From Candidatus Spongiisociaceae bacterium (lineage in GTDB: Bacteria; Actinomycetota; Acidimicrobiia; Spongiisociales; Spongiisociaceae): DNA of 64,000 bases. Numbering within the stretch: the first letter of the stretch is position 1; every line of letters begins with the position of its first letter. The translations under genes and the position numbers were made by a program. Below are positions 41,907 through 54,863 of the stretch, piece by piece. The notes under the pieces are model-generated. The model did not search any database and was not told the DNA's origin. It worked only from the letters and a program-made list of their open reading frames with translations. The stretch is from contig OZ241841.1 in assembly GCA_965202665.1 (NCBI GenBank), positions 1,824,001-1,888,000 on the forward strand. Direction: 5' to 3'.

Positions 41907-42227
41907 CTAAGCCGCCAGCCTTTTCGGCAGATTGCGCCGAACCCGAACCGCCGAACCATTGTCGAATCGCAACAACACCAGGTAGTTGTTGACGATGCTC
42001 TTATCCAACCGGGCGGGCGGCAAGCCCAGTTCGGCGGCATCCGCCACCCAGTTGGGGAACGTGCCGTAATGGCCCTTGAACGCCAACGACGCCGTGTGCC
42101 CTACGACCACCACCTCGTTCGTCCCCTCAAATATTGTATAAAGTATTGTTGTCTCCTTCCCTCGTTTGCCGACAAGTTGCATCGACCCGCAATTTGTCCT
42201 TCCCCCTATATAAGGAAGGAAATTCAC
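41907..42227 (-). CDS. Hypothetical protein at island edge
   Basis: ORF only; no recognisable motif. Confidence 0.35.
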   Translation of the reverse strand: MNFLPYIGGRTNCGSMQLVGKRGKETTILYTIFEGTNEVVVVGHTASLAFKGHYGTFPNWVADAAELGLPPARLDKSIVNNYLVLLRFDNGSAVRVRRNLPKRLAA

Positions 42228-42438
42228 TATTCATTGCAAGATTTTCTGTCTTCTAAACATCCCGAAACTCTTACAGAATTTAAACCAATATAAAAGGAGA
42301 TAAAAACGCTTCAGAAAAAATTTGTCTAACAAGAAAATTGCAGTGTGGACTTACTATGCTTCGTCGTCCCTTAGCCCGCCGTAACCCGAAAGGCGTCAGG
42401 ACATCAACGCTCAACGTCGTTTGGCGGAGGGCGCGGCG

Positions 42439-43098
42439 TCAGGTTCGGGTTTCATATCGGTCGGGGTCGTCTGTTGCTTCTGCGGGGTTGACAACGGTGG
42501 GAACGGGCCAGGGCTGGTCGTTGACTCCGTCATCTCGGATTGTGATGGTGTCGGGCAGGTCGGGGTCGAAGCGTACTATCTGGTCTTCTCGGCGGTCGTA
42601 GGCGTAGCCGTCGGGCAGTTGGTCGGTGATGAGCCTGATGGCCTCTTGATGTAGGGGGTAGAATACGCTGTCGTAGAGGCCGTTTTCTGCGTCTTGCCAT
42701 ATTTGCGCTACTCGGCGGAGGTGCGCCTTCCAGTATTTGCACTCGGGAGCGGGCGCGGGTTCGGTTTTGGTCTCAAATCGGTCGGGGTCGGCTTCGGCCT
42801 CTGCGGGGTGGAGGACGGTGGGGGCGGGGATGGGCAGGTCGTTGCCCGCTTCGCCTTTGATGATGAAGGTGTCGGGCAGGTCGGGGTCGAAGCGCACGAT
42901 CCGGCTTTCGTCGTAGTCGAAGGCATAACCATCGGGGAGTTGGTCGGTGATGAGTCGGATGCCCGCTTCGCGTTGGGGGCCGAGCACGTCGTCGTAGAGG
43001 CCGTCGTCGACATCCTGCGACATCTGCGTCATCCGCCGGATGCGCTCCTCCCAGCAGGCTTCCTCGGAGACGGGCCCCGGGTTAGGTTCGGGTTTCAC
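42439..43098 (-). CDS. Two-module repeat protein (paralog 2)
   Basis: Two copies of W...GLYD...IRLITDQLPDGY.YD....IVRFDPDLPDT...DPDR. Confidence 0.75.
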   Translation of the reverse strand: MKPEPNPGPVSEEACWEERIRRMTQMSQDVDDGLYDDVLGPQREAGIRLITDQLPDGYAFDYDESRIVRFDPDLPDTFIIKGEAGNDLPIPAPTVLHPAEAEADPDRFETKTEPAPAPECKYWKAHLRRVAQIWQDAENGLYDSVFYPLHQEAIRLITDQLPDGYAYDRREDQIVRFDPDLPDTITIRDDGVNDQPWPVPTVVNPAEATDDPDRYETRT

Positions 43099-43183
43099 GG
43101 CCAGCGAGGAGTCGGTGCCGAGCCCTGTGGATTTGAGGACAGCGGGTTAGATGTCACCTTTGACGGCGAGAGCGGGCGCGGCG

Positions 43184-43861
43184 TCAGGTTCGGATTGCAT
43201 ATCGGTCGGGGTCGGCTTCGGCTTCTGTCGGGTGGACTATGTCGGGAACTGGCTCGGGCTGGTCAGTTATTCCATTATATCTGATTGTGATGGTGTCGGG
43301 CAGGTTGGGGTCGAGGCGCACGATCCGGCTTTCGTGGTGGTCGTAGGCGTAGCCGTCGGGCAGTTGGTCAGTGATGAGTCTGATGGCCTCTTCCGATAGG
43401 GGGTCGATTAGGTTGTCGTAGAGGCCGTTTTCTGCGTCTTTCCATATTTGCGCTACTCGGCGGAGGTGCGCCTTCCAGTATTTGCACTCTGGGGCGGGCG
43501 CGGGTTCGGTTTTGGTCTCATATCGGTCGGGGTCGGCTTCGGCCTCTGCGGGGTGGAGGACGGTGGGGGCGGGGACGGGCAGGTCGTTGCCCGCTTCGCC
43601 TTTGATGATGAAGGTGTCGGGCAGGTCGGGGTCGAAGCGCACGATTTGGCATTCGTCGTAGTCGTAGGCGTAGCCATTGGGCAGTTGGTCGGTGATGAGC
43701 CTGGTGGTCGCTTCGCGGAGGGGGCCGAGCACGTCGTCGTAGAGGCCGTCGTCGACATCCTGCGACATCTGCGTCATCCGCTGGATGCGCTTTTCCCAGT
43801 AGGCGGCCAGGTCGGCTTCCTCTTTCAACATTTTGGTGGTCATGATGCTATACTCTACCAC
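43184..43861 (-). CDS. Two-module repeat protein (paralog 1)
   Basis: Same A-B module pair; start overlaps the toxin-like gene. Confidence 0.75.
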   Translation of the reverse strand: MVEYSIMTTKMLKEEADLAAYWEKRIQRMTQMSQDVDDGLYDDVLGPLREATTRLITDQLPNGYAYDYDECQIVRFDPDLPDTFIIKGEAGNDLPVPAPTVLHPAEAEADPDRYETKTEPAPAPECKYWKAHLRRVAQIWKDAENGLYDNLIDPLSEEAIRLITDQLPDGYAYDHHESRIVRLDPNLPDTITIRYNGITDQPEPVPDIVHPTEAEADPDRYAIRT

Positions 43862-44172
43862 AGGTTCCGTCTTCTTGATGACCTACGACTTTTTCGTTGT
43901 TGGCGTGCCTTGTCGATGTGGAATACAACTTTCTGCCCGCCTGGCCTGTACTCATATCCTACCTCAATGTGATCAAGTCGTTCTATGGCGAATCCCTCCA
44001 TCCACAAGGCCCGCTTCCCGGCGGTTCGCTTGCCGGATTTCTGAAAGGGGCCTACGTAAGGCCGGTCGAATACTGCTTCGGCGTCGGCTGGACCGTATCC
44101 GTGCTTGAAAGCCGACGGCAGGTACCAGACGCCGTTTTCTTCTACGATCCCAGGGGGTGCCTGATCCGTCAT
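43855..44172 (-). CDS. BrnT/RelE-fold-like toxin
   Basis: SAFKHG...D, IEVGY, VVFH...R pattern of small actinobacterial TA toxins. Confidence 0.6.
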   Translation of the reverse strand: MTDQAPPGIVEENGVWYLPSAFKHGYGPADAEAVFDRPYVGPFQKSGKRTAGKRALWMEGFAIERLDHIEVGYEYRPGGQKVVFHIDKARQQRKSRRSSRRRNLW

Positions 44173-44203
44173 CGGCAATCTGTCATACTATTTAGTTTTG
44201 AGT

Positions 44204-44236
44204 TTGACATTCTTGTGACCATAGTGTTATTATAAT
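44204..44236 (+). promoter_or_regulatory. Promoter of the R-M operon, near-leaderless
   Basis: TTGACA-N18-TATTAT with overlapping TATAAT just before the ATG at 44242. Confidence 0.55.
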
Positions 44237-44241
44237 ACACC

Positions 44242-44853
44242 ATGATTACATTAATAACGCGCCTGTCCGAGGTGGCGGAAGTTTCGCAGGGGTTGGCCCT
44301 GTCGGGGCGGGGGGTGGGCGCGCAGGCCGGGGATTGGCGGTTGCGGATGGTGGAAAGCCGGGACGTGTCCGACGACCGGCTCCGCTTGGACGGCCTGCGG
44401 GAGGTTGGTGTGGTGCGGAGCGTGCGCACCGAACGGCATCTGCTCCGTCCGTTCGATGTGCTGGTCACCGCTCGGGCCGGGCGGCCGGAGGCGGCCCTGG
44501 TGCCCCCCCGGGTGTCCCGCACCGTGGCGGGGATTACGCTGTTGGCGGTGCGTCCTCGCCATCCGGAGTCGGGGATGGGGCAGTACCTGTGGTTCTATCT
44601 GACATCCGCCGACGGGCGAGCGCAGCTGGCTCGCAAAACCCGCCCCGGTATCACGTTCACGTCCCTGTCGGCCCGCGACTTGGGGGAGATGGTGGTTCCG
44701 ACTCCGCCTCCCCGCATCCTGGACAGGGTGGCCCGCCTGGTCGGGTCGTCGGAGCGGGCCTACGCGGCGGCGACGGAGGCGGCCCGTCTGCGACGGACGA
44801 CCCTGCGGGACGCCCTGGTCCGCCGAATATGTCACACGGCCCTGCCAAACTAG
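44242..44853 (+). CDS. Single-TRD HsdS-like protein
   Basis: RLSEVAEV.QG, LRPFDVLV..R.G, YL.FYLTS, L...VP.PP plus coiled coil. Confidence 0.75.
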   Translation: MITLITRLSEVAEVSQGLALSGRGVGAQAGDWRLRMVESRDVSDDRLRLDGLREVGVVRSVRTERHLLRPFDVLVTARAGRPEAALVPPRVSRTVAGITLLAVRPRHPESGMGQYLWFYLTSADGRAQLARKTRPGITFTSLSARDLGEMVVPTPPPRILDRVARLVGSSERAYAAATEAARLRRTTLRDALVRRICHTALPN

Positions 44854-44869
44854 ATTAAGAGGTGAGACG

Positions 44870-46399
44870 ATGCCATTAACTCAACAAGAACTGGAGTCGA
44901 AACTCTGGCAGGCGGCGGACATCCTGCGCGGCCAGATCGACGCCGCCGATTACAAGAACTACATCTTCTCCATCCTGTTCCTGAAAAGACTGTCGGACCG
45001 CTTCGAGGAGGAGGTGGAGGCGGCGGTAGCGCAGGGCGTGCCCCGGGAGGCCGCCCTGTACGATACGGATGAACACGAATTCTTCGTCCCCGATGAGGTC
45101 CGCTGGGCGGCCTTGGCCGGGGCGTCGATGAACCTGGGGGAGAAGTTGAATGTGGCCGGCCATGAGATTGAGTACGAGAACACGCCCCGTCTGGACGGGG
45201 TGCTGACGTCGGTGAACTGGAATGACGAGTCCAAGCTGGGCTCCCCGGCCAACCGGGAGAAGATCATCCGCAACCTGCTCAACCATTTCAGCGATCTGGA
45301 TCTGTCGGACCGCAACCTGGCCCCGGACGGCGGGGGCGGGGCGGGCAACGTGCTGGGCGACGCCTACGAATATCTGATTCACCGGTTCGCCGACGATGCG
45401 GGCAAGAAGGGCGGCGAGTTTTACACCCCCCGGGCGGTGGTGCGCCTGATAGTGGAATTACTGCGCCCGCAGGAGGGGATGCGCATCTGCGATCCGACGG
45501 CCGGTTCGGCCGGAATGCTGATTTACACCGCCCAATATGTGAAAGAGCAGGGGGGCGACCCGCGCAACCTGGTGTTGCACGGCCAGGAACGCAACCTGGG
45601 GACGCTGGCCATCGGCCGCCTGAACCTGCTCCTGCATGATCTGCGCGCGGCCCGTTTGGAGGGAGGGGATGTGATCGCCGAGCCGCAACTGCTGGACGAC
45701 AAGGGATGGTTGATGCTCTACGACCGGGTAATAGCCAATCCCCCATTCAGTCTAAAAAACTGGGGTTTCGAGTCCGCCCCCGACGATCCCCACTCCCGCT
45801 TCAACCGCTACGGGGCCATACCGCCCCGCGCTAAAGGAGATTTGGCCTTCGTGTTGCACATGCTGGCGGTAACAAATCACACAGGGATGCTGGGGGTGGT
45901 GTTGCCGCACGGGGTGCTGTTCCGAGGTGGGGCGGAAGGCAAAATACGCAAAGGGATGGTGAAGGAGGATCGTTTTGAGGCGGTAATCGGTTTGACGCCC
46001 AACCTGTTCTTCGGGGCCGCCATCCCGGTTGCCATCTGTGTATTCAACAAACAGAAACCTCCGGAACGGAAAGGAAAGGTGCTTTTCATAGACGCCGACC
46101 AGGAGGGCTACTTCCGCCAAGGCAAAGCCCAGAACCATTTAGATGGTGAGCACATCCAGAAGATAGCCGAGGCCTACCACAATTTTGAGGAGGTGGAACG
46201 GTTCGCCCACATAGCCGATTTGGAGGAAATAGAGGAAAACGACTACAATCTTAACATCAGCCGCTACGTAGACAAAACGGAACCGATAGAAATCATAAGC
46301 GTAGAAGAGGCCTTGGCCCAGCTGAGAGAAGCTGAGCAACGGAGAGACGAAGCAGTAGCCAAAATGAACGAACACCTGAAAGAGTTAAGATATGTCTAG
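44870..46399 (+). CDS. hsdM: Type I R-M methyltransferase subunit
   Basis: LWQAADILRG, GEFYTP, DPTAGSAGML, ANPPF, PHGVLFRG, YNLNISRY. Confidence 0.96.
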   Translation: MPLTQQELESKLWQAADILRGQIDAADYKNYIFSILFLKRLSDRFEEEVEAAVAQGVPREAALYDTDEHEFFVPDEVRWAALAGASMNLGEKLNVAGHEIEYENTPRLDGVLTSVNWNDESKLGSPANREKIIRNLLNHFSDLDLSDRNLAPDGGGGAGNVLGDAYEYLIHRFADDAGKKGGEFYTPRAVVRLIVELLRPQEGMRICDPTAGSAGMLIYTAQYVKEQGGDPRNLVLHGQERNLGTLAIGRLNLLLHDLRAARLEGGDVIAEPQLLDDKGWLMLYDRVIANPPFSLKNWGFESAPDDPHSRFNRYGAIPPRAKGDLAFVLHMLAVTNHTGMLGVVLPHGVLFRGGAEGKIRKGMVKEDRFEAVIGLTPNLFFGAAIPVAICVFNKQKPPERKGKVLFIDADQEGYFRQGKAQNHLDGEHIQKIAEAYHNFEEVERFAHIADLEEIEENDYNLNISRYVDKTEPIEIISVEEALAQLREAEQRRDEAVAKMNEHLKELRYV

Positions 46400-47588
46400 T
46401 TTCGTCTCCCCCCCCCCCATTGGAAGATAGTTAAATTGGGTGATGTAGCCAATGTCGAATTCAGCAGTGTTGACAAAAAGGCGGTGGATGATGAAATTCC
46501 GGTGGTGCTTTGCAATTATCATGATGTGGTGAGCAATTATCGTATTCGGTCCGGTATAGATTTTATGCCTGCAACTGCTACAGCCAAGGAAGTTGACAAA
46601 TGGACGCTACAGCAAAATGACGTTGTCTTCACCAAGGATGCTGAGATAGGAAAGGTTTCCTTGGTGGAAGAGAACATACCAAATCTGGTGTGCGGCTATC
46701 ACCTAGGACGTGCTCGACCTAAACAAGATATAGTTTTTGGGCCGTTTTTGGCGGAAGCTCTCAAAACTCCCGTTACGCAAAAACAAATTACACGTTTACA
46801 AACAGGTCTTACTATCTCTGGGATCCGTCTAGGAGATATGCGATCTGTACAATTACTGTTACCTCCATTTGAAGAGCAAAAACATATAGCATCTGTTTTA
46901 GGTAGTGTTGACGAAGCGATAGAAAAAATGGAAAATGTAATAGTCAAAACAGTGCAACTACGCGATGCGCTACTACACGAACTGTTAAGCCGAGGAGTCC
47001 CCGGACACCACAAAGAAGGGGTAGAAGTACCCGGCGAGGCGTGGCCCCCCCCCCCCATGGAAGGTAGTCATCTTGGGTGATATAGCCGAAGTCCAAAAAG
47101 GCACTAGCTTTACTAGCAAGGATTTGGTGCTCGGAGACATTCCTGTAATTGCAGGAGGCCGCGAACCGGCCTATTATCATAAGTATTCTAACCGGCCACC
47201 TAATACGATCACGGTGAGCGCATCGGGTGATGCTGGCTACGTTTCTATTCATCGTAAGCCCATTTTCGCTTCAGATTGCATAACAGTCCGTCCTAAACCG
47301 GAAATATCGGTGACCAACTATATTTATTATTTTTTGAAACATAATCAGAACAAGATATACCGTCTCAGAACTGGTTCGGCGTTGCCACATGTATATCGGA
47401 AGGATATTGCCAGATTCATAGTAATACTTCCTCCGTTAGAGGAGCAGATATCCATTGCAAGATATTTAGACAGTGTGTCTGAGGTTATAGACCATAATAG
47501 ACAAGTAATGAACAGACAGAGTAGACTACGAGATGCACTACTACACGACCTTTTAACCCGAGGTCTTCCGAATAATCACAATGATTGA
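46392..47588 (+). CDS. hsdS: Type I R-M specificity subunit, frameshifted at two poly-C tracts (phase-variable or assembly error)
   Basis: ATG at 46392; C11 at 46408-46418 before WKIVKLGDV; C12 at 47045-47056 before WKVVILGDI; two LPP.EEQ..IA conserved regions. Confidence 0.85.
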
Positions 47589-47607
47589 TTTAGCAGGGAG
47601 GTAATGT

Positions 47608-50600
47608 ATGGATATTGAATTAGCGCAGGTGGAGCAACCGGCGCGGGAGTTGCTGGAGCGGTTGGGGTGGTCTTACCTTTCTCGTTCCGAACTTTCGCGG
47701 GAGAGGGGGGATGAGCGGGAGGTATTACTCAAGGGGCGGTTGCGTTCTGCTTTGCTTCGGCTTAATGAGTGGATGGACTCGGAGCAGGCGGACCGGGTAA
47801 TTTACGCTTTGGAACACCTGGAAGAATCTGGGATGGGGCGTAATAGGCGGGTGCACGAGTATCTTACCTATGGGATGCCTTTGGATGTGGACCAGCCGGG
47901 CGGGCGGCGTGCCCGTACTGTCCGGTTTTGTGACTTTGAGTATCCGGAGGGTGGGCGCAACGAATTCGTCGTCACCACCCAGTTCCGGGTTTCACGCGGG
48001 GAGAATGTTGTTCCTGATTTGGTGTTGTTCGTCAACGGCATTCCCCTGGTGGTGATGGAAGCCAAACGGCCCGACTTGTTGTGGCGGCGGGAGGAGGCTG
48101 TTAAGCAGTTGCGCCGTTATCAGGAAGCTGACCTGAATTTTCGGGGGAGGGGAGCGCCGGAGCTGTTTCATTACAACCTGTTGTGCGTGGCTCACTCTGG
48201 GGCGGAAGCGTCCTACGCCGGACTGTACGCCCCCGAAATAGACTATTTTGAGTGGAAAAGCATCCATCCTTTCCACGAAGACGAGGTGCGTAGCCGGTTC
48301 GGGGTCGAACCTCGGGGGCAGGCTCAGCTCATTATCGGCCTTTTGTCCCCCTCCGTCCTGCTGGACATTTTGCGCGATTACGTGGTTTACGAGCATCGGG
48401 GCGGGAAACTGGTTAAAAAGCTGCCCCGTTACCAGCAGTATCGGGCGGTTCGGGAAGCTTTGGGGCGCATCCGGCGGGGCGGGAGCCCCCAGGAGCGGGG
48501 CGGGATTGTTTGGCACACCCAGGGGTCCGGCAAGTCTTTGACCATGCTGTGGCTGGCCACCAAACTGCGCCGTTCCGCCCGCCTGGGCGACTTGGACAAC
48601 CCGGCCATTCTCATCATCACCGACCGCACCCAGCTGGACCGGCAGATTACCGACACTTTCAACCGGTGCGGCTTCTCCGCCCCCGAACAGGCTAAAAGCA
48701 CCCGGGATTTGCGCCGTCTGCTCACCAGCGGGGTGGGGCGTACGGTGATGACCACCATCCAGAAATTCGAGGAAGTCCTGCAGGAAGACGACGGGCGGGC
48801 GGAGGCTCTCAACCCGGCCGCCAACGTGGTGGTGATGGTGGACGAAGCCCACCGCACCCAGTACGGAATCCTGGCCGCCCGCATGTCGCAGGCCCTGCCC
48901 AACGCCGTCCTCATCGGCTTCACCGGCACCCCCATCGACAAAGGGTTCGAACGTAGCACGCGGCGGCGGTTCGGGGAACTGATCGACTCCTACACCATCC
49001 CCCAATCGGTTGCCGACGGGGCCACCGTCCCCATCCGCTACGAGTTGCGCAAACCGGAACTGTCCGTCGTCGGCCCCGACGCTTTGGACCGGCTGTTCAA
49101 CCGGCTGTTCGGCGATCTCACCGACGATGAGCAGGCGCAGATTCGCCGCCGTTACGCCAACCGGGAAAGCTTGGCCGAAGCCGAACGGCGCATTCAAATG
49201 ATCGCCGAAGACATCGCCGGCCATTTCATCGACCACATCCGGCCCAACCGGTTCCGGGGGCAGGTGGTGGCCCCCAGCCGGGCGGCCGCCCTCCAATACG
49301 CCCGGCATCTGCGGGACTTCGGAATACCCGAAACCTATCCGATCATCACCGTCACCCCCGGCGATGGGGCCGAATATAACCAGGTGCGGGATCTGAACCA
49401 GGAACAGTTGGTGAAAGCCTTCGTGGAAGACGAAGACGGGCCGGGGGTGCCCGAAATTCTGGTGGTGGTGGACAAGTTGCGCACCGGGTTCGACGCCCCC
49501 CGGGAGCAGGTTCTCTATTTGGACAAAGGAGTGCGGGAACATGATCTGCTGCAGACCATCGCCCGCGTCAACCGCCGCTTCTCCCACCATGCGGATGGGG
49601 TTTCAACTGAAAAAACCTACGGGTTGATAGTGGACTATCACGGGGTTTCCCAAGAGTTGGAGAAAGCCCTGGCCGGGTTCGAATGGGGGGAGGTCAGCGA
49701 GGCGATGGAGCCATTGGAAACCGGGGATGAAATCGGGGAGGTGATTGAAGAAGCGGCCGCCCGGGCGGAAAGATGGTTCCGGGGGAAGGATTTGGATGAC
49801 ACCTGGGAGTGCGTGTTGATGTTCGCCCCCGACGCCGAAACCGAAGGGGAATTCAAGATAGACCTTTATCAGCGGTTCAATCAGGACTACCGGCATTTCG
49901 CCTATCTGATGGACCGGTTCCTTCCCGACCCGCGGGCTTTGGCCTACCGGGACCGGTTGTCGCGGCTCACCGTCGTCCGCTCCTATGTGAGGGCGCAGTA
50001 TATGCGGGAAGACGCCGAACTGGACTGGACTGACATCGGGGCGAAAGCCAAAAAACTGGTGGACGAGCGGATAGACGCCGTCGTGAAGGAACTGATGAAA
50101 CCCATCTCCATCCTCCACCCCGACTTTGAGCGGACGATGGCCGGGTTGCCGGGGGAGCGGGTTCGGGCTTCGCTGATGGAACACGCCCTGCGGGCGGAAA
50201 TCAACCGTCGGTTCGGGGAAAATCCGGCTTTCTACCAGAAACTGTCCGAGTTGTTGAAAGAAGTGATCGGCCAGTTGCGGCAGGGCACGCTGGACGACTT
50301 GGAAGCCTGCCGTCGGATGGGGGAAATGGCCGGGCGAATGGAAGAGGAGGGGGACATCGCCGCCCGGCTGGAACTCACCCGGCGCGGATACGCCTACTAT
50401 GGGTTGTTGCTGGCGGAACCGGACGAACCCACCCGCGCCGCCGGGGACCTGGGCGAACATCAGGAAGAATTCGAGGAGGAGATGGTGAAACTGGCCGGAA
50501 GATTGGATGAAGCGGTGGAAAAACATGCGGCGATCATCGAATGGCGGGACAAGCCGGACGTGCAACGGGAAATGCGCCGGGACGTGAAGCGGATTCTGCG

Positions 50601-50697
50601 GGAAAGCGGGGAATACTCCCAGGAGCATCTGGACGAACTGAGCCGCCGCCTGGTGGAAATCGCCCGGCGGCAGGGGGACGCCGGTGCGGACGCGTGA
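47608..50697 (+). CDS. hsdR: Type I R-M restriction subunit
   Basis: PDLVLFVNGIPLVVMEAK, WHTQGSGKS, DEAHRTQYG, FTGTP, RTGFDAP, QTIARVNR. Confidence 0.96.
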   Translation: MDIELAQVEQPARELLERLGWSYLSRSELSRERGDEREVLLKGRLRSALLRLNEWMDSEQADRVIYALEHLEESGMGRNRRVHEYLTYGMPLDVDQPGGRRARTVRFCDFEYPEGGRNEFVVTTQFRVSRGENVVPDLVLFVNGIPLVVMEAKRPDLLWRREEAVKQLRRYQEADLNFRGRGAPELFHYNLLCVAHSGAEASYAGLYAPEIDYFEWKSIHPFHEDEVRSRFGVEPRGQAQLIIGLLSPSVLLDILRDYVVYEHRGGKLVKKLPRYQQYRAVREALGRIRRGGSPQERGGIVWHTQGSGKSLTMLWLATKLRRSARLGDLDNPAILIITDRTQLDRQITDTFNRCGFSAPEQAKSTRDLRRLLTSGVGRTVMTTIQKFEEVLQEDDGRAEALNPAANVVVMVDEAHRTQYGILAARMSQALPNAVLIGFTGTPIDKGFERSTRRRFGELIDSYTIPQSVADGATVPIRYELRKPELSVVGPDALDRLFNRLFGDLTDDEQAQIRRRYANRESLAEAERRIQMIAEDIAGHFIDHIRPNRFRGQVVAPSRAAALQYARHLRDFGIPETYPIITVTPGDGAEYNQVRDLNQEQLVKAFVEDEDGPGVPEILVVVDKLRTGFDAPREQVLYLDKGVREHDLLQTIARVNRRFSHHADGVSTEKTYGLIVDYHGVSQELEKALAGFEWGEVSEAMEPLETGDEIGEVIEEAAARAERWFRGKDLDDTWECVLMFAPDAETEGEFKIDLYQRFNQDYRHFAYLMDRFLPDPRALAYRDRLSRLTVVRSYVRAQYMREDAELDWTDIGAKAKKLVDERIDAVVKELMKPISILHPDFERTMAGLPGERVRASLMEHALRAEINRRFGENPAFYQKLSELLKEVIGQLRQGTLDDLEACRRMGEMAGRMEEEGDIAARLELTRRGYAYYGLLLAEPDEPTRAAGDLGEHQEEFEEEMVKLAGRLDEAVEKHAAIIEWRDKPDVQREMRRDVKRILRESGEYSQEHLDELSRRLVEIARRQGDAGADA

Positions 50698-51421
50698 CCG
50701 GGTGCGTTACGGCGGGTCGGTCATCGAATACGAGATCCGGCGCAGCCCCCGCCGCCGTAAAACTATCCAGTTGGCGGTTGACGGGGGCGGGGTGTCGGTG
50801 ACCGCCCCGATGGAAGCCGGCGACGAATATCTGAAGGCGTTCGTGCGGCAACGGGCCGACTGGATCATCCGCCGCTCCTCGGACGCTGCGGCTTTGCGGG
50901 CCGCCCCCAAGCGGTTCGTGAGCGGGGAAACCGTGCCCTACCTGGGGCGGAACATGCGGATGATCGTGTCGGAGGCGGAGGAAGGGGAGCGGTCGCCGCA
51001 GGTGCGGTTCGACCATTGGAGGCTGCGGATAGCGGTTCCCCCCGGTTGGGAGGGGGAGGAGCGGACGGAGCGGGTGCGGTCGGCGGTGACCGACTGGTTT
51101 CGGGGGCGGGCGGAAGCGCGGGTGCCGCCGGTGGTGGACCGCTGGTGGCCGCAGTTCGGGCGGGGGGAGCGGTCGGCGGTGCTGATCCGCAACCAGCGCA
51201 AACGGTGGGCCAGCTGCGGGGCGGACGGCACGTTGCGTTTCAACTGGCGGGTGGTGATGGTCCCCCCGCCGCTTCTGGAATACGTGGTGGTGCACGAGTT
51301 GGCCCACCTGGTGGTCCGCAACCATTCCGCCGACTTCTGGAACCTGGTAACCGGAGCCATCCCCGACGCCCCCGCCCGCCGTCGCCGCCTAAGGGAAACC
51401 ACCCCCCACCTCCCCTTCTAA
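50684..51421 (+). CDS. YgjP/DUF45 (M48-like) metalloprotease-fold protein coupled to hsdR
   Basis: WASC, FNWR, YVVVHELAH...NHS..FW; overlaps the hsdR end. Confidence 0.9.
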   Translation: MRTRDRVRYGGSVIEYEIRRSPRRRKTIQLAVDGGGVSVTAPMEAGDEYLKAFVRQRADWIIRRSSDAAALRAAPKRFVSGETVPYLGRNMRMIVSEAEEGERSPQVRFDHWRLRIAVPPGWEGEERTERVRSAVTDWFRGRAEARVPPVVDRWWPQFGRGERSAVLIRNQRKRWASCGADGTLRFNWRVVMVPPPLLEYVVVHELAHLVVRNHSADFWNLVTGAIPDAPARRRRLRETTPHLPF

Positions 51422-51467: not shown

Positions 51468-52679
51468 ATGAGCACCTACACAAGCTACCTTCCCAAGTTG
51501 GATAGCCGCGAGTCGTACATGGACTATCTGGAAGGCTATTTGACGCTGGAAACTTTTGGGCAACCCGAGGCGGGGCGAAGCCCTCTTAAAACGTATATGT
51601 TGGAAACCGCTCGCGGCGAGCGGAGGGAGCGTTCCTTGGCGGAATCCTTTTCTAACGGTATACGTCTGGATGCTATCGACGAAGCGTTGTACGAAGTCTG
51701 GGATAATGAGAACCATCCAGGCGAAATAGTTGGGCTAATTGAGGTTGCAGAAGAGCGCCATCCTGTGTTCTATACTGCTTTTAAATCCGATGAAAGCAAT
51801 AATTGGATAAGTAAAAATGTGGATCAAACCCCTTGGCTTGACAGAATGTGGCTATCTTCGCACATTTTATCCCATATATGGAATCATACACGGAAAGTAT
51901 CTGATCCTGCACGCTATGTTGGATTTGGCTTCGAGCACGAATCTAAATACGAAATGTTAAGTGATGCATCACAATATGAAGATATGGAGATAGGTGAAGG
52001 ATATGAATCACCAGCACCAGATCGTCGAAAAGCAAGGGTATATATCACTGAAAGGCTTGATGTTTTGTCTGACAAATTAGAAAAATTTACTAAATTGTAT
52101 GATCCCTTGCATTCTTTAGTGCAGCTACAAATACCCTCCGATAGTAAAGGAGGTCATCGCTTACATTACGATGGTAGGGCCATAAATCTTAGCGACTCTT
52201 TTTTGGAACATCGTTCTAAAATTATGAGTATAGTGAAGTTGTATAAGAATCTAACAGAAACGGCAGAGGACAAACTGTGGCTAGGCACTACTGATGTTGA
52301 TGGCGGTGGTTTTAGGATGGATGGTGAGCCTATAACAATTCAATTTGAACAAGAACTGTCAGAAGAAACATTCAATAAATTTATAACCTATGGATTACAA
52401 CGCAGGAATAGCATTTTGAGAATAGGTGGTTATCTTCATAATCGCGGGCCGAGGAAAATTCATATGTCTGCTATCGACAGACATTTATGGCAACCTTTTC
52501 TCCTCGAAGCAACAACAAAACATATTATGGTTTTATTACCGCGAGGTACGTGTGGTAACACTATTCACCGTCTTGTTACATATGTGCAACGTTTCATATC
52601 GCCCAAAATAAGCGTGTGGTTGGGAGGCGAATCATATAAAGATGCAGTTGGTTTAGCTAGTAAAGGAAACAGAAAATGA
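51468..52679 (+). CDS. AT-rich hypothetical protein (candidate defence gene A)
   Basis: 403-aa ORF; C-terminal LPRGTCGNTIHRL; no family recognised. Confidence 0.8.
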   Translation: MSTYTSYLPKLDSRESYMDYLEGYLTLETFGQPEAGRSPLKTYMLETARGERRERSLAESFSNGIRLDAIDEALYEVWDNENHPGEIVGLIEVAEERHPVFYTAFKSDESNNWISKNVDQTPWLDRMWLSSHILSHIWNHTRKVSDPARYVGFGFEHESKYEMLSDASQYEDMEIGEGYESPAPDRRKARVYITERLDVLSDKLEKFTKLYDPLHSLVQLQIPSDSKGGHRLHYDGRAINLSDSFLEHRSKIMSIVKLYKNLTETAEDKLWLGTTDVDGGGFRMDGEPITIQFEQELSEETFNKFITYGLQRRNSILRIGGYLHNRGPRKIHMSAIDRHLWQPFLLEATTKHIMVLLPRGTCGNTIHRLVTYVQRFISPKISVWLGGESYKDAVGLASKGNRK

Positions 52680-53773
52680 GCGATTCTATTCAGTTGATTG
52701 ATGATCCTGCTCAATTGCTTAGTGATCCTGTTTTTCAACTAAATATGGTTATTTGGTCTGTGAAAGATTTACCTAAAGATGGTAACTCACAGATAAACCC
52801 ATTTCTTAAGGAGGCAGGTTATTATATCGTTGCCCTTAACCGGAGAATTCTACTAACGGAGATTGGTGATAGGAGTTCTTTTTTTGAATTAGTACCAGAT
52901 TGGAGTCCTCCTGTTCCAGATGTATGGTTGAGGCATGAAAGTGATAATTTTGATCTAATATTAGAATTAAAGTCGCGTGGTTTTGGAGAAAAATCTTCAA
53001 AAAAAATAAAGCAAATTTATAAAATGTTGGCTGCGTCGTTCGACCTGTCCTCTTCTATTGGTATCAAAGATAGGAAACCTGGATTTTTTATTATTATGAC
53101 TTTACATAAAGATGCCGACAAAATGACAGACACTCTAAATTTGTTGAAGTCGACATTAGAGGAAGTGCAGATTTCGTCCGCGCCTGTAGCTGTTATAGGT
53201 CTTGATCATAGTCAAAATAATTGGCTGTGGAATAGTCTTAATCCTTCCACTTTACCTAAACCTTTATGCAAGGGTTTATCCCAACCTGTTACTGTACTGA
53301 GATCCATGGGACATATAGAAGATATCATTCCAATGTACTTTATACCTTGGCTTCCAGAAGTTGATGACGAATCTTCACCCCTTATTTCAGATGGTTTGGC
53401 TGTATTGACTGGGCGCGTGTTATCTTATGTTCAAAAGGAAATAAAAAATGCCGAACCTCCTGTCATGCTATCATTGAGAGCAGATTCTCTGCTCCAAGAA
53501 GCCACTTATGGTGTATTTAACCATTGGAAAGGTAAGGATAGAAAAAATTTTACAAAAAAGGTAATAAATATTATATCAAAAAATATTAATGCCATTAGTA
53601 TTTCCTATAAGAGCGATAAGGAAGTAGGTATTGAAATTAAAACAGAATCTATCCGTGAAGATATTTTGAAAGAATTGGAACGCGTTGAAATTAATAGCTT
53701 TGATAAGAACCTTGAGGGTGCTAGCTCGTCTGTACAGCCACATTTATTTGGTAGCATGGAATGGGAGGGATAG
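52676..53773 (+). CDS. AT-rich protein with PD-(D/E)xK-like motif (candidate defence gene B)
   Basis: ATGA overlap; PDVWL...LELKS...KQ. Confidence 0.75.
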   Translation: MSDSIQLIDDPAQLLSDPVFQLNMVIWSVKDLPKDGNSQINPFLKEAGYYIVALNRRILLTEIGDRSSFFELVPDWSPPVPDVWLRHESDNFDLILELKSRGFGEKSSKKIKQIYKMLAASFDLSSSIGIKDRKPGFFIIMTLHKDADKMTDTLNLLKSTLEEVQISSAPVAVIGLDHSQNNWLWNSLNPSTLPKPLCKGLSQPVTVLRSMGHIEDIIPMYFIPWLPEVDDESSPLISDGLAVLTGRVLSYVQKEIKNAEPPVMLSLRADSLLQEATYGVFNHWKGKDRKNFTKKVINIISKNINAISISYKSDKEVGIEIKTESIREDILKELERVEINSFDKNLEGASSSVQPHLFGSMEWEG

Positions 53774-53825
53774 TGGAGTGGATGATTTCTGCTAGTTGGG
53801 TTAGTTGGCAAGGAGGCGAAGCGAT

Positions 53826-54119
53826 ATGACAACTTCAGCAACTAGGTCGGAGGTGCGGACTATTACGGCCTCTGAGTTCCGAGCCAAGTGTTTGGCCTTG
53901 ATAGATGAGGTGGCGGAGACCGGTGAGGAGATACTGATCACCAAGCGGGGTAAACCGGTGGCGCGGCTGACCGCCTATTGGGAAAGGCCCAAAACTCTCT
54001 ATGGTAAATATCGAGGTCAGATCAAAATCTATGGCGACCTTGATGAGTTGGATGATGAAGGTTGGGAGGAGGAGGTCCTGAGCAAATGGGATGAACGGCT
54101 TGCCTCGCCATCCCCCTAA
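53826..54119 (+). CDS. Phd/YefM antitoxin (orphan copy)
   Basis: ASEFRAKCLALIDEV..TGEEILITKRGKPVARL; SD AAGGAGG. Confidence 0.9.
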   Translation: MTTSATRSEVRTITASEFRAKCLALIDEVAETGEEILITKRGKPVARLTAYWERPKTLYGKYRGQIKIYGDLDELDDEGWEEEVLSKWDERLASPSP

Positions 54120-54120
54120 T

Positions 54121-54149
54121 TTGACTATGGTCATGACCATGGTTATAAT
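54121..54149 (+). promoter_or_regulatory. TA promoter containing two tandem palindromic operators
   Basis: TTGACT-N17-TATAAT overlapping TGACTATGGTCA and TGACCATGGTTA. Confidence 0.75.
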
Positions 54150-54183
54150 ATAGATAGTCGGCACAGAAGCGAAAGGAAAACGA

Positions 54184-54465
54184 ATGACAACTTTAACCGC
54201 TGAGTCGCAGGTTAGGACCATCTCGGCCTCTGAGTTTAAGGCCAAGTGCTTGGGGTTGATGGACGAGGTGGCGGAGACCGGTGAGGAGATCGTGATCACC
54301 AAGCGGGGCAACCCGGTGGCGCGGTTGGTCCCGTCGCGGGAAAGGTTCAAGGCTCCGTTCGGTTTTTACAAGGATCGGATGGAAATTCTAGGAGACATCA
54401 TAAGCCCGATTGACGACATGGAATGGGAGGAGGAATGGCTCAAGCAATGGGATGAATTGATGTGA
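54184..54465 (+). CDS. Phd/YefM antitoxin
   Basis: ASEFKAKCLGLMDEV..TGEEIVITKRGNPVARL; overlaps the toxin gene. Confidence 0.92.
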   Translation: MTTLTAESQVRTISASEFKAKCLGLMDEVAETGEEIVITKRGNPVARLVPSRERFKAPFGFYKDRMEILGDIISPIDDMEWEEEWLKQWDELM

Positions 54466-54863
54466 CCCTGCTAGACACGCATGTTCTTCTTTGGTTGATG
54501 TCGGATAACCCTAGGCTGGCCCAAGATGTTCGAAAGATGATTGAACGGTCTTGGAGTGAGGGCGAGGCAGTTGCATCGGCGATATCTTTTTGGGAGATGG
54601 CGATGTCGCAACAAAAGGGGCGACTCAGAATAATGGTTGAAATTGGACAGGTCCGCGAGAATTTTTTGCGGCAGGGGCTGAAGGAGATTGCCGTGAGCGG
54701 TGAGATCGGCATTAGGGCCGTGTCGTTGCCTGATTTTCATAAAGATCCGGCTGACCGGCTGATTGTCGCCACTGCGTTGGAGGGGGACCATCGGCTGGTT
54801 ACGGCGGATGGGAAGATTCTGGCTTGGCCGGGGCCGTTGCGGCGTTTGCCCGCCGGGGTTTAG
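54462..54863 (+). CDS. vapC: PIN-domain toxin (VapC)
   Basis: LLDTHVLLW, SAISFWE, HKDPADRLIVATA, LVTAD. Confidence 0.92.
   Translation: MTLLDTHVLLWLMSDNPRLAQDVRKMIERSWSEGEAVASAISFWEMAMSQQKGRLRIMVEIGQVRENFLRQGLKEIAVSGEIGIRAVSLPDFHKDPADRLIVATALEGDHRLVTADGKILAWPGPLRRLPAGV

Follow-up and report, generated by a model that had tools for sequence, protein, structure and literature searches.

The 64,000-nucleotide window that was analyzed here (contig OZ241841.1, positions 1,824,001 to 1,888,000, from a Candidatus Spongiisociaceae bacterium) harbors what is likely a type II toxin-antitoxin (TA) locus, in which one gene for a RelS-like putative RNase is followed by four diverged copies of a small module. 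The four copies are proposed to block the RNase, and the diverged ones are probably kept as a panel of variants, a reading that is held, as a whole, with about even confidence. Its starting point is formed by what is observed directly: the gene layout, the tandem origin of the copies, the linkage of toxin and module, and the independent arrays. The antitoxin family and its recurrent amplification are likely new. Within the open literature covered, no tandem antitoxin array behind one type II toxin is described.

Gene layout and tandem origin

Three open reading frames on the minus strand (43855-44172, 43184-43861, and 42439-43098) were confirmed. The first encodes a putative RelS/BrnT-like RNase toxin of 105 aa, assigned by a profile match and by its catalytic residues. 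Genes 1 and 2 follow on the same strand; both code for 219 aa and are composed of two ~105-aa modules each, A-B and then A'-B'. Module A (43508-43843) is the predicted cognate antitoxin on the basis of a fold model and co-folding. Module B (43184-43507) is fused to A in frame and takes on an interface helix unlike that of A (e.g. S27 to W). Behind a spacer carrying the junction motif (43099-43199), gene 2 contributes A' (42763-43098) and B' (42439-42762), which are 85% and 75% identical to A and B, respectively. The remaining identities are 51% for A-B, 58% for A-B', 52% for A'-B, and 56% for A'-B'. The modules make up a repeat family (D1) of four copies of 300 nt with spacings of 321, 424, and 321 nt, which gives a unit of 745 nt; a first-pass annotation of this DNA had rightly described a near-duplicate gene about 745 bp further on. 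Both module motifs that it quoted, the helix and the IRLITDQLP-type stretch, are present, and the junction sequence that it saw recurring at a gene start and a module end is found at three sites (repeat D2; 42429-42454, 43072-43097, and 43174-43199). Among 34 proteins scanned, two modules are present in 26, one in 6, three in 1, and four in 1.

The toxin gene had also been described as overlapping a gene of two modules. The two modules stand, but the overlap does not, unless gene 1 starts at GTG 43861. Database homologs of gene 1 mostly start at the methionine equivalent to that of the MTTK sequence (43843), and with ATG 43843 as the most likely start, the toxin gene is followed by an 11-nt gap. 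The proteins P0014 and P0034 carry an upstream leader that is out of frame in the window strain, which leaves the start of gene 2 uncertain (GTG 43098 or ATG 43032); gene 2 is without a clear start signal. Whether neighboring modules form one gene or two is decided at their ends by stop/sense or one-nucleotide changes, as seen in a TGA/CGA change in the sister species G001 and in a one-base shift in the window.

The genome consists of one 2.77-Mb contig, and short-read contigs from three studies bridge the junction between genes 1 and 2. Contigs X1 (43007-43368, possibly from the source sample itself) and X4 (43042-43368) show 0 differences each, and X5 (42989-43203) shows 8 differences and 1 gap. 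Since the contigs of three studies cross the junction, the duplication is real and no product of assembly, an origin that the first-pass annotation had itself raised.

Upstream of the toxin gene, 69 nt (44173-44241) separate its ATG (44172) from the divergent ATG (44242) of a type I restriction-modification (R-M) operon, matching the ~70 bp given previously. A sigma-70-like site on the plus strand (TTGACA-18-TATTAT, 44204-44233) faces the operon, which lies outside the TA unit (44242-51421, plus strand) and comprises a half-size hsdS-like gene, hsdM, hsdS in two pieces, hsdR, and YgjP. The link to the R-M operon that had been drawn is common to the sister species, but the other toxin-module loci examined lie in varied neighborhoods, so that it is a local one. 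The reading frame of the hsdS gene (46392-47588) is broken at each of two C10 tracts (46409-46418 and near 47046-47057), and in the sister species an (AC)n tract lies in the middle of hsdS. The contig of one sequencing run matches the window exactly, and another run of the same sample differs by one gap within 43752-47700; phase variation at the hsdS tracts is possible. Further open reading frames flank both units: one of 106 aa downstream of the array (41907-42227, minus strand) and two of low GC content after the R-M operon (403 and 365 aa, 51468-53773, plus strand), all of them free of Pfam or PADLOC matches.

The putative toxin

Membership of the toxin in the RelS/BrnT-like family is well supported by sequence comparison, and the earlier description as BrnT/RelE-like is upheld by the match of its family profile to RelS. 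The profile of the 37-member family (A6) matches RelS from Mycobacterium tuberculosis (PDB 9sdc_C) with E=6.6e-7, and profile A4 does so with E=0.044; with the narrow profile of close homologs (A1), no toxin was matched in the PDB. Residues S20, K23, H24, and H85 are the counterparts of S6, K9, H10, and H64 in RelS. The positions of K23, H24, and H85 are retained in 30, 33, and 37 of the 37 family rows, and R61 of RelS is not retained (V82). RelS is a BrnT-like enzyme that cleaves 16S rRNA inside the anti-Shine-Dalgarno sequence, and its toxicity is hurt most by the loss of K9, H10, and H64 (PMC13284704, excerpt). Judging from the conserved residues, the toxin is very probably an active RNase of the RelE superfamily that acts on translation. 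By analogy, it might also cut the 16S anti-Shine-Dalgarno sequence as RelS does, although this substrate assignment is tentative; the anti-Shine-Dalgarno core at the 16S end of the host is intact.

The toxin is unnamed by Pfam, NCBIfam, and PADLOC. The Pfam BrnT model matches 0 of the 37 family members, and DUF4258 weakly matches 2 of them (best E 0.029). Its own structural model is poor (pLDDT 47.5) and shows a strand-helix-helix-three strands arrangement with weak matches to 7vd7, RelE, and ParE at E values above 1. Identity among close toxin alleles of relatives is 61-83%. Two sequencing runs of one study yielded a contig in which unlike sequence takes the place of the 1-kb toxin block, with the array and hsdM kept. 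Two other RelS-like toxins of this genome are 13% and 18% identical to the toxin and have partners of their own. Residues of the toxin interface are no more variable than the rest (0.65 versus 0.71 bits). A scan for the toxin gave one match of 21 residues.

The putative antitoxin module

The model that was built from an alignment of 60 modules (pLDDT 94.5) consists of a helix (2-31), a second helix (36-52), five short strands, and a short helix. Strands, not helices, come after the VR.DP motif, and the modules had accordingly been called RHH-less with good reason: no RHH domain is found by Pfam, and the hhalign probability against the RHH partner of a related toxin is 3.9%. The module is unnamed by Pfam, NCBIfam, and PADLOC. 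Its profile does not match 9sdc, and its fold is unlike the all-helical HTH protein RelI. Structure searches with the module model gave nothing at E<=0.001 in Foldseek and a best Z of 3.5 in VIA-align, with none >=5 among 48,161 chains. To go by the model, in which the β domain was folded as part of the whole module, the module is a putative antitoxin of apparently new fold.

The first helix of the module ends in EAEAG[AE][YF]D in relatives. In the outgroup genome G028 (locus L061), a toxin of the same family is followed by a gene with an 'EE.A.YD' helix and RHH-type matches. Both observations bear out the likeness to the 'AE.GYD' helix of antitoxins that had been noted, and they support the module helix as its counterpart, with homology backed for the helix part only. 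The idea that the module arose from the RHH strand found no support, as only a short VR.DP.L stretch aligns at the hhalign probability given above.

A search of genomes with the module profile, which the first-pass annotation had called for, was positive in 15 of 28 other genomes of the family and in 0 of 16 genomes that represent the remaining families of the order. A further 400 genomes of Actinomycetota gave two weak partial matches (E 3e-4 and 6e-4), which were discarded as they lie inside longer open reading frames and look like chance. The module is thus found only in Ca. Spongiisociaceae, and its range so far is a minimum. A pattern scan found it in one other genome, that of the sister species G001 in the same genus, and a narrow two-pattern scan of viral contigs and JGI metagenomes found none.

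Pairing and predicted complex

A module lies at most 300 bp 3′ of 35 of the 47 toxin hits, in tandem in 18 cases and convergent (tail to tail) in 17, and the other 12 are without one. Of the 20 seeds of the toxin profile, 10 were picked beside modules, but no seed came from the 17 convergent cases. The original 49 toxin rows were reduced to 47 by dropping two second fragments of broken genes, and the 84 module rows to 80 by dropping one weak row and three fragments that overlap. One of the 12 unlinked toxin rows, on which no conclusion depends, is from an unpublished genome (G039). Among 69 module clusters, 23 are single modules without a toxin hit nearby. At L004:2141-2963, in the same genome as the locus, the toxin domain is fused to a module and followed by a second module copy. 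A conserved adjacent gene pair, as is characteristic of type II systems, is therefore at hand (35 of 47 linked, one fusion). The tail-to-tail pairs occur in G008, G012, G015, G018, G019, G020, and G023, with up to 7 per genome; they carry CANNNT before the module ATG and represent a dispersed, inverted form of the pair.

The complex of toxin and module, whose prediction had been proposed as a check, was co-folded for module A and scored 0.82 against 0.26 for the best control. The runs agree in at least 80% of the contacts, and the pLDDT of the partner is at least 88. In a calibration that is roughly applicable here, 116 of 157 solved pairs attain the mark used for co-folding, compared with 2 of 215 mismatched ones. 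The best predicted contacts join M23, T24, M26, S27, and V30 of the module to L18, S20, F84, and H85 of the toxin, which puts the helix residues 23-30 of module A on S20/F84/H85. The β domain also makes predicted contacts to the toxin (62-66 and 82-93). With good confidence, this model of module A suggests that the module occludes the active site, its acidic helix lying over K23/H24/H85 much as RelI covers RelS, but with an unrelated fold.

Proposed promoter and expression

The last Trp codon and the stop codon of the toxin gene form an extended -10-like motif (TG-n-TAGAGT, 43852-43860, minus strand) that lies 8 nt before the ATG of gene 1. Both arrays of G001 carry TG-n-TAGCAT, likewise 8 nt before the ATG. 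Of 51 module genes that come first or stand alone, 20 have TANNNT 6-9 nt before the ATG. The same holds for 0 of 9 downstream copies and for 173 of the 923 long genes in this genome, where leaderless genes are common anyway. When CANNNT is also allowed, the count rises to 39 of the 51 first or single module genes, many of which are from one clade. Gene 1 likely possesses its own leaderless promoter that is built on the toxin stop codon, as far as such motifs can indicate. A promoter of this kind would explain the tail-to-tail and the solitary modules and would replace autorepression. In the absence of a DNA-binding domain, the excess of antitoxin would then stem from this promoter and the extra copies instead of autorepression, a step that is moderately favored. 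If the toxin removes the anti-Shine-Dalgarno sequence, an antitoxin mRNA without a leader might nonetheless be translated. The translation of leaderless mRNA by clipped ribosomes is described as unclear, and an earlier claim for E. coli did not hold up (PMC12274833, excerpt).

Arrays in relatives and divergence of the copies

At the same locus in G001, 12 module hits are spread over single- and double-module genes, and the array decays toward its far end, where the distal copies are frameshifted or cut. A second G001 locus contains 7 hits. The tree that was computed for 60 modules, which has few columns and many open forks, resolves separate clades for the B pair (100/100), for six downstream modules of G001 (99/97), and for the second array of G001 (100/100); the expansions are therefore locus-specific. 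Outside this genus, the module almost always occurs singly. RelS-like toxins are also followed by several copies of other short partners, four at L097:4002-5400 (G013) and two at L073:1933-2810 of this genome (G000), whose acidic helices end in AGEF.D or SGALD. The partner is thus duplicated at each of the three RelS-like loci in this genome.

The dN/dS ratio, determined by simple counting, is below 1 for all 66 pairs of 12 modules (0.09-0.69) and is relaxed inside the window (0.52-0.69). The interface was compared in 63 modules from protein hits, of which 44 are A-type and 19 B-type. Helix 22-36 is near-invariant within each type (0.29 bits in A, 0.13 bits in B). Between the consensus sequences of A and B, differences are found at 24 of the 39 positions in the predicted interface versus 14 of 59 others (Fisher p=2.7e-4, with burial and kinship ignored), including the exchange of S27 to W at the center of the interface. 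A-type copies vary at a second patch of the interface (1.27 bits), and over the whole A-type interface the variability only just exceeds that of the other positions (0.85 versus 0.75 bits). Long identical tracts are shared between modules, and gene conversion can mimic conservation. The change in B, seen on the predicted interface, suggests a shift in specificity toward another toxin allele; a target for B is not evident in this genome, whose two other RelS-like toxins are the distant ones mentioned above. On the same grounds, the idea of the first-pass annotation that the modules neutralize several toxin variants is plausible. In the proposed mechanism, B-type and variant A-type copies would neutralize other toxin alleles that replace one another at the locus, for which the chances are put slightly below even.

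Alternative explanations

The copies could also result from a ratchet in a lineage prone to duplicating DNA, in which extra toxins are purged while extra antitoxins are tolerated or serve dosage only, and B has drifted without gaining a new specificity. This is unlikely, but several findings speak for it. The genome holds 116 tandem-duplication clusters of all kinds, and at C1:2471410-2475076 whole units are duplicated, with the toxin-like copies truncated and most partner copies intact. The decay of the distal G001 modules, the lack of an own -10 motif in all 9 downstream copies, and the relaxed dN/dS inside the window point the same way. Drift does not fit well, however, with a B helix that is near-invariant in 19 modules of many assemblies and yet unlike A at the predicted contacts, nor with dN/dS values that are all below 1. 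Duplicates are also not retained at random across genes: 832 candidate small ORFs of this genome give 17 tandem clusters, 2 of which are antisense shadows, and 10 of the remaining 15 are TA or TA-like (5 by library or profile, 5 provisionally).

The modules had further been proposed as multiple sensors of phage triggers. Each β domain would then detect a different phage protein and free the toxin upon infection. PADLOC (2023 library) gave no match to a known defense model. In both species the array has the type I R-M operon as its neighbor, the β domain is without a known fold match, and defense and TA genes are reported to be enriched in sponge actinobacteria (PMC12008989 and PMC11706023, excerpts). 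Against this stand the position of the A/B divergence at the predicted toxin interface instead of a free surface, the predicted toxin contacts of the β domain itself, and the dampening of toxin release that would be expected from spare antitoxin copies; most toxin-module loci examined do not lie beside defense genes. The sensor idea is left without support and is very unlikely. That the module is an unrelated small repeat protein near these genes, or that the toxin is inactive, has only a slim chance: 23 single modules lack a toxin hit nearby, 17 linked pairs have a tail-to-tail arrangement that TA operons seldom show, and neither protein is named by any library, but 35 of the 44 toxin hits of the family are linked to a module, one pair is fused, co-folding places the module on the active site, and the catalytic residues are intact. 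An assembly artefact as the source of the second gene is next to negligible. No single short-read contig spans the whole stretch, but differences between the two units are many and scattered, contigs in runs of three studies cross the junction, and longer arrays exist in another single-contig genome.

Comparison with known systems

BrnA, the partner of BrnT, is an RHH repressor. BrnT-BrnA differs from the locus in this respect, as RHH is absent here and none of the 37 toxin-family members matches Pfam BrnT. BrnT-BrnA shares with it the RelE-superfamily fold, which is presumed here, the essential K/H pair, and the order of toxin before antitoxin (PMC13284704, excerpt). RelS-RelI (Rv2663-Rv2664, M. 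tuberculosis, PDB 9SDC) shares the toxin family, the toxin-first order, and the S/K/H...H residues, and it resembles the locus further in an acidic helix over the active site, which is predicted here, and in the lack of evident autorepression (PMC13284704, excerpt). RelI, however, is all-helical and single-copy (PMC13284704, excerpt), whereas an unrelated helix-helix-β module is present four times and partly fused here, and unlike RelI, the antitoxin gene has a leaderless-type promoter motif of its own. As its antitoxin is that of neither system, the locus is neither RelS-RelI nor BrnT-BrnA. The L061 system comes close with the same toxin family and a similar acidic helix ending in YD, but it has an RHH domain where the window module has its β domain.

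Polymorphic toxins are countered by poly-immunity arrays with several inhibitors per toxin. In phage T4, the toxin inhibitor gene tifA undergoes segmental amplification (PMC9391042, excerpt). Both share with the locus that inhibitors are amplified or outnumber their toxin; they target the toxin of another organism, whereas the present case is a chromosomal, intracellular pair with old, diverged, and fused copies. Orphan antitoxins have been proposed to neutralize incoming related toxins (anti-addiction; PMC7354431, excerpt). Here, the spares are paralogs stacked behind their own toxin, and the word 'tandem' is absent from that review.

Through the locus, the newly characterized RelS toxin family gains a likely antitoxin whose fold is apparently new. 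The natural series of paralogous antitoxins, from 1 to ~12 per toxin and with near-constant, type-specific interface residues, offers a test of anti-addiction versus mere accumulation, and a leaderless antitoxin beside a possible remover of the anti-Shine-Dalgarno sequence makes the question of translation by clipped ribosomes testable. The most far-reaching version is an 'antitoxin accordion' in Spongiisocius-like sponge symbionts, in which new-fold antitoxins would be amplified, fused, and diversified behind RelS-like toxins that cut the anti-Shine-Dalgarno sequence (and behind other TA toxins), panels would cover different alleles, and the leaderless lead antitoxin would be made by clipped ribosomes and reverse the arrest. 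This combination is improbable as a whole.

Other tandem copies in these genomes

Loss of mismatch repair as the cause of the duplications was rejected, as NucS is present. Elsewhere in the window (53805-54845), two tandem genes for Phd-family antitoxins (~80% DNA identity) are followed by one PIN toxin gene. At L099:897-3029 (G000 C1:2198397-2200529), five tandem copies of a 108-aa acidic protein lie behind a gene of 125 aa; the latter (array at C1:2198787) bears a loose, non-significant resemblance to the toxin family (0.45%). A protein of ~100 aa is present in 5-6 copies at L101:610-4276 and in 2 copies at L102:658-1841, next to genes that we take to be PIN-like (no library match), and the extra toxin-like copies are truncated. 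Three tandem copies of a 195-aa gene stand behind an HD-domain gene at L007:7982-11297, adjoining the G001 array. At a PemK/MazF locus (L098:1017-2795), three toxin hits are accompanied by a duplicated neighbor gene, so that the toxin is amplified as well.
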